Source: Gammaproteobacteria bacterium (GTDB lineage Bacteria > Pseudomonadota > Gammaproteobacteria > Eutrophobiales > Eutrophobiaceae). Taken from it: a DNA stretch of 64,000 bases. The stretch covers positions 12,438 through 76,437 of the forward strand of contig CBDFNQ010000028.1 in the NCBI GenBank assembly GCA_965250225.1, given 5' to 3'. The first letter of the stretch is position 1. Each line of letters starts with the position of its first letter. This document shows positions 54,673 through 55,281 of the stretch, in pieces. Made by a program: the position numbers and the translations under genes. The notes beneath the pieces are model-generated. The model saw only the letters and a list, made by a program, of their open reading frames with translations, did no database searches and was not told the DNA's origin.

Positions 54673-55281
54673 TTAACGTGCGCGATCGTCATGGTCACTG
54701 AATTGTTTTTTTCTCAATTCTCGGCGCTCTTGTGCTTCTATACAGAGGGTAGCTACCGGTCTGGCTTCAAGACGTTTCAGGCCGATTTCTTCTCCGGTCT
54801 CATCACAATAACCATAAGAACCGTCACCAATCCTGTTCAAGGCAGCATTGATTTTTAACACCAGCTTTCTTTCCCTGTCACGGGTACGAAGTTCCAGACC
54901 AAATTCTTCTTCTTGTGTTGCACGGTCAGCCGGGTCAGGAAAATTACTGGCATCCTCTTTCATGTGCTCGACTGTACGACCAACTTCATCGATAAGCTCT
55001 TGCTTCCAGTCGAGTAATATTTCACGAAAATGCTCAAGCTGAGCGTCGTTCATATAATCTTCATTCTTTTTCGCTTTATATGGAACGAAGTCCTTGCTGG
55101 GACCATCCGTTTTAACGCCTGTCTTTCTGGAAACAGTTTTTTTCTTTGCTGTTTTCTTGGTCACGGCTTTCTTTGCTGTTTTCTTGGCAACATTTTTTTT
55201 GGCGACCTTTTTCTTGGTCACGGCTTTCTTTGCTATTTTCTTAGCTACTTTTTTCTTTGCCGTTTTTTTCTTTTCGGCCAT
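54673..55281 (-). CDS. dksA: DksA-family RNA polymerase-binding factor, with a CxxT/CxxA (Zn-finger-less) C-terminus and a ~55-aa Lys/Ala-rich N-terminal extension
   Basis: [21 protein letters not shown]...[25 protein letters not shown]...[30 protein letters not shown]. N-terminus [36 protein letters not shown]. Confidence 0.85.
   Translation of the reverse strand: [202 protein letters not shown]

Follow-up and report, generated by a model that had tools for sequence, protein, structure and literature searches.

The window (the whole stretch of gammaproteobacterial DNA that was analysed, 64,000 nucleotides) carries a dksA gene (CDS at 54673–55281, minus strand, 202 amino acids plus stop) whose product joins a polycationic N-terminal tail of 64 residues to a DksA core with a zinc-free globular segment. 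Taken as a whole, the evidence leans modestly towards a normal secondary-channel factor that would be tethered to DNA by its disordered polycationic tail. DksA has been studied almost exclusively in proteins that are both tail-less and four-Cys (E. coli DksA and Pseudomonas DksA1), and functional zinc-free forms are already known, namely DksA2 of P. aeruginosa and the DksA of R. sphaeroides.

Identity of the gene and its DksA core

The product is almost certainly DksA. It matches the Pfam domains DksA_N (E = 7.9e-34) and zf-dskA_traR (E = 7.9e-13) and reaches 162.3 bits with TIGR02420 (RNA polymerase-binding protein DksA; cut-off 115.5), while the 175.4 bits obtained with the narrower equivalog NF008045 stay under its cut-off of 289. 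E. coli DksA (1TJL) is the best sequence match (165 bits, query residues 65–194), compared with 93 bits for P. aeruginosa DksA2 (4IJJ). Directly upstream lies cysZ (55362–56075, minus strand; NF003433, 261 bits), with queF also upstream, and directly downstream lies gluQ, encoding tRNA glutamyl-Q34 synthetase (53691–54592, minus strand). The reading frame, the TIGR02420 match and the neighbours all agree with the dksA-gluQ position given in the preliminary description of this DNA, and the order cysZ-dksA-gluQ is conserved among relatives. The gluQ gene is in two ORFs here (54068–54592 and 53691–54089, matching NF004314 positions 3–163 and 168–293), with a frame change at about 54110–54140, and is a single piece in the relatives. 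A scan for promoters and terminators around dksA gave nothing above shuffled sequences, a lone promoter-like site being located inside cysZ.

The core (residues about 65–202) seems likely to work like E. coli DksA. The coiled-coil domain DksA_N (residues 81–151; 54829–55041, minus strand) is modelled by AlphaFold2 as helices 79–112 and 120–153 with pLDDT above 90, and the DxxDxA motif (D116-P-A-D119-R-A121; 54919–54936, minus strand) is placed at the tip of this two-helix coiled coil, where it aligns with E. coli D71–A76. D116 and A121 do not vary across 85 sequences, and D119 is nearly invariant. The C-terminal helix and charged end (residues 181–202; 54676–54741, minus strand), recognized from the AlphaFold2 helix 181–201 and the alignment, finish in FSDHDDRAR, and an ending of the form RD.[DE]DR.R is common to close zinc-free relatives. 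The model has the predicted DksA fold, including a globular domain as well as the C-terminal helix: it superposes on DksA in the RNA polymerase complex (5VSW_M) with a TM-score by target length of 0.88 and an rmsd of 1.2 Å over 129 columns, and the Foldseek TM-scores by target length are 0.84 for 1TJL and 0.87 for 4IJJ. Binding to RNA polymerase would be expected from these likenesses, the coiled coil reaching in so that the DxxDxA tip points to the active site.

The likeness to E. coli DksA (1TJL; RNA polymerase complexes 5VSW and 7KHI) thus comprises the fold (TM-scores by target length of 0.84–0.88), 58% identity, the DxxDxA tip, the C-terminal helix and a downstream gluQ. Of the six residues of ppGpp site 2 in the E. 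coli protein (R91, K94, L95, K98, R129 and K139; 10.1101/188680), five are kept, as R136, K139, L140, K143 and R174; since E. coli K139 corresponds to Q184 here, the response to ppGpp may differ. The genome encodes a RelA/SpoT gene. In contrast to E. coli DksA, the protein lacks the Cys4 site (T162, A183), has 45 additional N-terminal residues, the first 64 residues forming the tail, and bears a charged C-terminal extension.

A zinc-free globular segment in the sole full-length DksA

The globular segment (54733–54807, minus strand), identified from the sequence, the alignment and the model superposition, has no Cys4 zinc finger. It holds the pattern CxxT-N17-CxxA instead, beginning YGYC159-DE-T162 and ending C180-IE-A183, and in the 4IJJ alignment the Thr falls at C117 and the Ala at C138, as described for zinc-free DksA2 (Lennon 2014, PMC4010833). 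The earlier assignment to the DksA2-type pattern therefore stands. Because two cysteines are replaced by Thr and Ala, the protein would have no thiol-zinc site and probably needs no zinc, as far as its sequence indicates. The same two substitutions are described for R. sphaeroides DksA, a protein that can stand in for DksA in an E. coli dksA deletion strain and affects RNA polymerase in vitro (PMC4010833).

The zinc-free pattern is not limited to second-copy paralogues. Here it belongs to the sole full-length DksA found in the genome (89.7% complete), and a four-Cys copy, sought as a possible companion, was not among the matches to PF01258. Only two other such matches occur in the genome, a YbiI-type protein of 88 aa and a short paralogue of 113 aa that stays under every cut-off. 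No second full-length DksA was seen in the six zinc-free relatives of the same family either, and zinc-free and four-Cys forms share one and the same cysZ-dksA-gluQ slot. The zinc-free protein is the housekeeping copy here, an ordinary RNA-polymerase regulator. It resembles P. aeruginosa DksA2 (4IJJ) in the CxxT...CxxA pattern, in a very similar C-terminal segment (C.ETGE.IG...ATLCIEA.ER) and in fold. However, DksA2 is described as a second, Zur-regulated copy beside four-Cys DksA1 and has no tail, and the protein studied here is closer in sequence to E. coli DksA. Another parallel is R. sphaeroides DksA (RSP2654), described as a main DksA that functions although it has no zinc finger, with Thr and Ala at the two positions (PMC4010833); as far as that description goes, it differs in being alphaproteobacterial, with one Cys only, 158 aa and no polycationic tail.

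No Zur-box-like palindrome was found at three or fewer mismatches in the 80-nt spacer upstream of dksA, using a motif that may not suit this organism. Window-wide the same motif, with the same reservation as to its applicability, gave 39 matches against 36 expected, which is chance level. One site with a single mismatch, at 38886, has uninformative neighbours.

In the coiled coil, zinc-free proteins from the family to which the window belongs resemble four-Cys DksA (63%) more than zinc-free DksA of the Xanthomonadales type (48%). In the C-terminal part they resemble the Xanthomonadales type (68%) more than four-Cys DksA (54%). A quick tree from the coiled-coil columns alone needed four changes of zinc state. 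However, an AU test did not reject a tree in which the 36 zinc-free rows form a single clade (p-AU 0.84), and this constrained tree exceeded the quick unconstrained one by 25 log-likelihood units; a mosaic origin by recombination, or a convergent one, is hence unsupported for the zinc-free C-terminus. The data are consistent with a simple chain that runs from divergent zinc-free proteins through Woeseia-like zinc-free ones to the four-Cys forms.

Composition, duplication and probable translation of the N-terminal tail

The tail (residues 1–64; 55090–55281, minus strand) contains 27 Lys, 1 Arg and 3 acidic residues, so that 28 of its 64 residues are basic, and its only Pro (P61) lies outside the repeats. 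AlphaFold2 predicts no secondary structure for it (pLDDT 53–63, not below 50). The Lys/Ala-rich, histone-H1-like character noticed from the first reading is thus upheld for a segment that is in frame with the core. Its match to Pfam HC2 (PF07382, chlamydial histone H1-like) reaches 23.2 bits, short of the cut-off of 40, and is probably driven by composition, being a likeness of composition and not membership in that family.

Within the tail, two in-frame copies that each encode 12 residues (copy 1 at 55209–55245 and copy 2 at 55152–55188, both minus strand) are repeated with a period of 57 bp. The best pair of copies spans 37 nt with 2 mismatches, 4 nt more than the 33 originally noticed; Tandem Repeats Finder (TRF) reports periods of 57 (2.3 copies) and 27 (4.4 copies), and a separate repeat search returns a 57-nt pair at a spacing of 57. 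When the tail's own codons were shuffled 2000 times, the longest repeat of this kind was 15.6 nt on average and never more than 25 nt, so that none of the shuffles reached 37 nt; the duplication is thus genuine and does not merely follow from composition. Shuffles and TRF together support the earlier view that the tract expanded by a 57-bp (19-aa) internal duplication.

Translation very probably begins at M1 and would include the tail. A Shine-Dalgarno-like AAGGAA (55290–55295, minus strand), a putative ribosome site, has its GGA core 9 nt 5' of the ATG at 55281, and in a relative of the same genus AGGAAG precedes the ATG by about 8 nt. Besides M1, the only in-frame starts ahead of the conserved FVPY are GTG codons at V21 and V40, either of which would still keep the basic tail. 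It could be argued that the Lys-rich region is untranslated, with an internal start and an upstream frame left open by accident in A-rich sequence. Such DNA does open several frames, the opposite strand also being open across the region with ORFs of 92 aa and 67 aa, and some database gene calls in relatives begin at internal codons. However, reading the sequence from V40 to F65 reveals no in-frame start, relatives conserve both the MAxKKKT start and the SD-like site, and in each relative examined the tail runs into the core in one unbroken frame although its length changes greatly. The Met of EDYMNDAQ, which the preliminary description had named as a possible true start, fails as a candidate, because its counterpart in E. 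coli DksA is M32, an internal residue, and because conserved residues (65–76, aligned with E. coli residues 20–31) precede it. We regard an untranslated tail as very improbable.

In the 13 loci of relatives where TRF found an array inside the tail, the period of the best-scoring array is always divisible by 3, ranging from 30 to 96 and differing between genera, which likewise speaks for a translated tract. Even within the genus the tail varies between 64 and about 120 residues. A DNA alignment of the tail with that of a same-genus relative was uninformative owing to its repeat content. The tail may have grown from a short basic MAxKK N-terminus, which is present in many untailed DksA proteins, and its length would change fast by in-frame tandem duplication.

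Distribution of the tail among Gammaproteobacteria

The 228 closest database proteins are zinc-free without exception, and 202 have at least 180 aa. The remaining 26 are shorter, some being called from an internal Met or from a V/MLSGP start; these may come from contigs that break off, from choices made by the gene caller, or from proteins that are truly short. For annotation this means that gene callers sometimes begin a tailed dksA at internal codons. The basic tail is present in every one of 18 same-family relatives with readable upstream DNA, 6 of them zinc-free and 12 four-Cys. With 74 residues before the YM motif against a clade median of 158, the protein in the window has one of the shortest tails.

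We also sampled the class evenly, taking one genome per family (113 DksA loci) and counting a basic extension when it comprised at least 40 aa. Such extensions, 44–299 aa long, occur at 39 of the 113 loci, and 14 of 112 loci are zinc-free; Lysobacterales/Xanthomonadales loci have the zinc-free form as well. Hence the tail is no oddity of one gene but is common among relatives that have been little studied, and a comparison with relatives, which had been proposed as a check, shows it both widespread and variable in length.

This variability bears on the possibility that the tail has no specific ligand and is a tolerated low-complexity expansion, produced by replication slippage on a basic seed and doing no more than aiding solubility or serving as a spacer. 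Tail length and repeat unit vary freely between genera and even within one, conservation is limited to composition, the MAxKK seed already exists in many untailed proteins, and E. coli DksA lacking residues 1–18 is described as unimpaired in function, so the N-terminus tolerates change. Yet a basic, almost acid-free composition has been kept in all 39 tailed families over the whole range of lengths, which argues for selection on charge, and tails persist in streamlined genomes of 1.5–2.5 Mb. A tail without any ligand therefore seems improbable to us.

A possible role in tethering DksA to DNA

The nearest described architecture is that of S. coelicolor DdbA (SCO2075), in which an H1-like Lys/Ala N-domain of variable length precedes a DksA-like domain with two tip Asp (PMC3643593), and the protein in the window has this same two-part H1-like/DksA-like arrangement. 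The cloning primer given for DdbA also implies, as we read it, a V-A-K-K-K-T start that resembles MAxKKKT (PMC3643593). A literature search found no tailed DksA described outside Streptomyces DdbA and none in Proteobacteria. The earlier statement that such a tail lies outside the described DksA architecture does not hold in general, given the DdbA precedent as reported (PMC3643593). Unlike the present protein, DdbA keeps four Cys, is distantly DksA-like (BLAST E of 8e-11 to E. coli) and is described as one of three paralogues (PMC3643593); according to its authors it occurs in streptomycetes only, and in that account its action on RNA polymerase is deduced from genetics only. Compared with DdbA as described, the fusion in the window is most likely independent, because its core groups with gammaproteobacterial DksA, which makes a common origin unlikely. 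If so, it represents a second, independent H1-like tail fused to a secondary-channel factor.

We propose that the tail is a disordered polycationic anchor that would bind DNA, and possibly RNA, without sequence specificity, keep DksA on the nucleoid beside RNA polymerase and so raise its local concentration, and perhaps couple DksA to DNA compaction. By analogy, tethering to DNA or the nucleoid is tentatively put forward as the main role of the tail. The N-domain of DdbA, with S/T-A-A-K-K repeats, is reported to bind and condense DNA, which the DksA-like domain does not (PMC3643593). Similar tails occur in the same genome on TopA, PhaE, a phasin and ribosomal protein S2, as well as on an all-basic protein of 131 aa, and the lysine tails of TopA (Streptomyces) and of the phasin PhaF (Pseudomonas) are known DNA binders. 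AlgP and PhaF of Pseudomonas and the lysine repeats of Streptomyces TopA are comparable disordered, DNA-binding Lys/Ala tracts with variable repeat number, AlgP being described as polyphosphate-binding too. However, those tracts are C-terminal and often Pro-rich (KPAA), whereas the present one is N-terminal on an RNA polymerase factor.

As Lys-rich tracts bind polyphosphate and RNA too, DNA is not the sole candidate ligand. The tail could mainly be a polyphosphate-binding module through which polyphosphate would, in starvation, capture or concentrate DksA or mark it, for instance for polyphosphate-dependent proteolysis. The genome encodes PPK1. Polyphosphate accumulation in E. coli is reportedly regulated by DksA, according to the title of one study. 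A density of at least 9 Lys per 20 residues, which the tail exceeds, is described as binding polyphosphate tightly (PMC12077175), and the H1-like AlgP is reported to reach polyphosphate granules through its Lys-rich domain (PMC9239181). However, that domain is said to bind DNA too, so the two ligands are not exclusive. No DksA protein is known to be linked to polyphosphate granules in any organism, and the tailed proteins of the same genome include DNA enzymes such as TopA. We consider polyphosphate binding an unlikely main function.

Finally, the tail might act on the transcription complex itself, contacting acidic surfaces of RNA polymerase, downstream DNA or nascent RNA and thereby altering the affinity of DksA or its competition with Gre factors. 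The N-terminus is described as part of the globular domain on the secondary channel's rim, in agreement with the 5VSW match, a disordered chain of 60–300 residues could conceivably reach DNA or polymerase surfaces, and the zinc-free clade has a conserved charged C-terminal end as well. However, the tail contains no conserved motif suggestive of a defined protein contact, and its extreme variation in length fits a fixed interface poorly, making this the role of the tail only by a slim chance.

If the tail does tether DksA to DNA, the route by which it meets RNA polymerase would be changed in many environmental bacteria. A broader reading, possible but doubtful, is that in about one third of gammaproteobacterial families DksA is chromatin-bound through a slippage-grown tail derived from the MAxKK seed and finds RNA polymerase along the nucleoid. 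Were this reading true, transcription control could couple to DNA compaction or polyphosphate, the tail-less E. coli DksA would be one of two common designs, and the zinc-free tailed form would represent a metal-independent, DNA-tethered stringent control typical of Woeseiaceae-like sediment bacteria. A tailed zinc-free DksA of 261 aa is also present in a named species (NCBI name Lentisalinibacter orientalis), in which these proposals are testable.

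The zinc-free DksA core

The dksA gene of the window (54673-55281, minus strand; 202 residues) is one ordinary representative of a large and so far unstudied clade of DksA proteins that are zinc-free and tailed, and the preliminary description of it, as combining a zinc-free C-terminus, a Lys-rich tail and an internal duplication, is confirmed as a whole. The zinc-site positions are occupied by C159, T162, C180 and A183, with 17 residues separating T162 from C180, exactly the CxxT-N17-CxxA pattern described. In Pfam, residues 81-151 match DksA_N and residues 154-188 the DksA/TraR finger domain; the protein scores 162.3 bits against NCBIfam TIGR02420 (dksA; cut-off 115.5) and does not reach the cut-off of the narrower model NF008045. 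Among solved structures, E. coli DksA ranks first (165 bits, query 65-194 against chain 20-149), with P. aeruginosa DksA2 behind it (93 bits). An AlphaFold2 model based on an 85-sequence alignment gives a core with pLDDT >90 and helices at 79-112, 120-153, 168-173 and 181-201, and this core superposes on RNAP-bound DksA 5VSW_M with an rmsd of 1.2 A (TM-score by target length 0.88) as well as on DksA2 4IJJ (TM-score by target length 0.87).

There is published precedent for a zinc-free core. Lennon et al. 2014 describe an R. sphaeroides DksA without the zinc finger, bearing Thr and Ala at the DksA2 positions, that complements E. coli and is active on RNAP in vitro, and they take DxxDxA, not the finger, as the mark of DksA function (PMC4010833). 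This tip is D116-P-A-D119-R-A121 in the window protein and is conserved across the 85-sequence alignment. From its fold and motifs, the core should bind the RNAP secondary channel as DksA does, and a zinc requirement is not expected, by analogy with R. sphaeroides DksA and with DksA2. Among the six DksA residues assigned to ppGpp site 2 in a preprint on the RNAP-DksA-ppGpp structure (10.1101/188680), five are retained, and E. coli K139 corresponds to Q184; Q occupies this position throughout the zinc-free clade sequences compared. A RelA/SpoT gene is present in the genome.

A probably translated tail with in-frame repeats

Residues 1-64 contain, by hand count, 27 Lys, 1 Arg and only 3 acidic residues, which bears out the Lys-rich tail. 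Residues 1-65 are modelled with no secondary structure (pLDDT 53-63), and a match of residues 3-63 to the HC2 histone-like Pfam family is below threshold. The proposed 57-bp duplication is real and in frame (19 codons): Tandem Repeats Finder reports periods of 57 (2.3 copies) and 27 (4.4 copies), and a separate repeat search found a 57-nt pair at a spacing of 57. The best pair, 55209-55245 and 55152-55188 (minus strand), spans 37 nt with two mismatches, against a longest repeat of 15.6 nt on average and 25 at maximum when the codons of the tail were shuffled 2000 times. The duplication is recent enough that synonymous positions are kept.

Tandem arrays also occur within the tails of 13 relative loci, with best-scoring periods of 30, 33, 36, 42, 45, 96 or similar, all multiples of three, differing between genera and reaching 20 copies; the tail of a same-genus relative is about twice as long as that of the window. 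Extreme in-frame arrays (L010:1914-2521, L016:1944-2498 and L022:1218-1509, three of the loci examined) consist of 20 x 30 bp, 12 x 45 bp and 6.5 x 45 bp units, respectively, at 87-97% match, and give tails of 190-250 residues. The tail thus appears to be coding and to grow by slippage, and one alternative to a functional role is that it is a ligand-free product of this process. Because the extreme N-terminus of tailed DksA is similar across families and many untailed DksA also begin with MAxKK, growth from a short basic seed is suggested.

An untranslated tail, a further but unlikely alternative, would be expected if the start were the Met of EDYMNDAQ, as had been considered. This Met, however, aligns with the internal M32 of E. 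coli DksA and has conserved residues upstream of it. Apart from the dksA ATG, start codons in frame upstream of F65 are limited to GTG at V21 and V40, and AAGGA lies 9 nt upstream of that ATG. Moreover, all 18 same-family loci with readable upstream DNA have a frame rich in Lys and Arg that runs on into the core; tail lengths vary among the relatives.

Distribution among Gammaproteobacteria

In all 228 closest proteins returned from a collection of 5.8 billion, the second zinc position is Thr and the fourth is Ala. The residues preceding the YM motif number 158 at the median in these proteins, versus 74 in the window DksA and 31 in E. coli; 26 of the 228 are shorter than 180 aa, some having been called from an internal Met or later start. 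Within the family, 19 relatives have a DksA locus (6 zinc-free and 13 four-Cys). Two others, G015 and G018 (100% and 98% complete), gave no DksA match at E <= 0.001 with a single full-length query sequence.

The best 150 representatives from a library of 1.84 billion proteins, a sample biased towards the query, include 128 with an intact N-side core, and 105 of these have at least 40 residues before the core (E. coli: 20), the extension being strongly basic in 50, with both zinc classes included. Four zinc-free representatives (P0342, P0353, P0366 and P0371) share the C-terminal motif GRLLARPTATLSLEAQQRRELKQKM and carry extensions of about 280-330 residues; as these are only mildly basic, they are another kind of tail.

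An even sample consisted of 120 genomes, each from a different further family of the class. At E <= 1e-20, 115 of them had a match; an unpublished genome and a match at a contig edge were set aside, and the remaining 113 loci were read (98 four-Cys, 14 zinc-free and 1 cut). A basic extension, defined as at least 40 residues from the first ATG of which the best 30-residue window holds 9 or more Lys+Arg, is present at 39 of the 113 (median 124 residues, range 44-299; remaining loci, median 16). By eye, two loci were over-called (L012 and L213) and two missed (L099 and L264), so the count stays near 39. This breadth of the tail among Gammaproteobacteria is apparently unremarked: in the literature searched, outside which most subscription journals lie, we found no description of a tailed proteobacterial DksA. 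The rule finds a tail at just 2 of the 14 zinc-free loci, or 3 if L099 is counted, so that having both features is typical of particular lineages, namely a subclade of the subject family and bacteria resembling Woeseiaceae. In Lysobacterales and Xanthomonadales the loci are zinc-free but untailed.

A mosaic DksA was hinted at by patterns of identity, and in a quick tree the zinc state had to change four times. However, in an AU test on the coiled-coil columns alone, one clade holding all zinc-free sequences was not rejected (p 0.84), and a mosaic origin was therefore dropped.

Possible role of the tail

The H1-like tail has a precedent as well. Aldridge et al. 2013 describe Streptomyces DdbA, in which a 93-residue H1-like N-domain, containing S/T-A-A-K-K repeats and able to bind and condense DNA, precedes a DksA-like domain; they state that the protein is restricted to streptomycetes (PMC3643593). 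The DksA-like domain of DdbA is four-Cys, whereas the window DksA is zinc-free. DksA N-terminal regions are otherwise reported as variable, E. coli residues 1-18 being removable without harm (PMC4010833).

Eight open frames in the genome, dksA among them, have Lys-rich tails. The others encode TopA and ribosomal protein S2 (both C-terminal tails), the PHA synthase subunit PhaE, a phasin, an all-basic protein of 131 aa and two proteins without a Pfam match; they lie, by contig, at C26:3928-6336 (L185), C25:68139-69332 (L184), C38:258186-259511 (L188), C38:259766-260248 (L189), C27:18663-19055 (L187), C27:156760-157809 (L186) and C17:42180-42623 (L183). Actinobacteria have a comparable set of lysine-tailed proteins. 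Given the tail's composition, its predicted disorder, the DdbA precedent and the similar tails on TopA, ribosomal protein S2, PhaE, the phasin and the 131-aa protein, the tail would most likely anchor DksA to nucleic acid unspecifically and so hold it on the nucleoid. It might instead bind polyphosphate, for which PPK1 is encoded in the genome. A direct action on the transcription complex is another alternative to the anchor. Lys-rich tails of other proteins are reported to bind DNA and polyphosphate in AlgP and PhaF (PMC9239181) and to confer processivity on Streptomyces TopA (PMC5714199).

Copy number and gene neighbourhood

PF01258 has three matches in the genome searched, an assembly of 3.35 Mb in 38 contigs that is 89.7% complete: dksA, an 88-aa YbiI-type protein (NF008243, 144 bits) and a 113-aa short paralogue below every NCBIfam cut-off. 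No second full-length DksA, four-Cys or other, was found in this assembly. The short paralogue (L003:1501-1842 on contig C36, minus strand) has four Cys and the motif ELDQ..VGRLSRMDA, lacks the DxxDxA tip, and is conserved in the relatives L089, L091, L092, L095, L096 and L102.

The window dksA sits between cysZ and gluQ, an order that recurs among same-family relatives whichever DksA type they possess; gluQ is downstream at 13 of 19 same-family loci and at all 32 loci L034-L065. Here gluQ (53691-54592, minus strand) is broken up: around 54110-54140 the frame changes, away from any homopolymer, leaving two ORFs that overlap. Either the gene is a true pseudogene or the assembly is wrong here; gluQ is a single ORF in nearly all relatives' loci, L043 being split too. 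On the other side of cysZ-dksA lies queF (preQ1 synthase; 56085-56474, minus strand). Both queF and gluQ (glutamyl-queuosine tRNA synthetase) belong to queuosine metabolism, and their proximity may be incidental.
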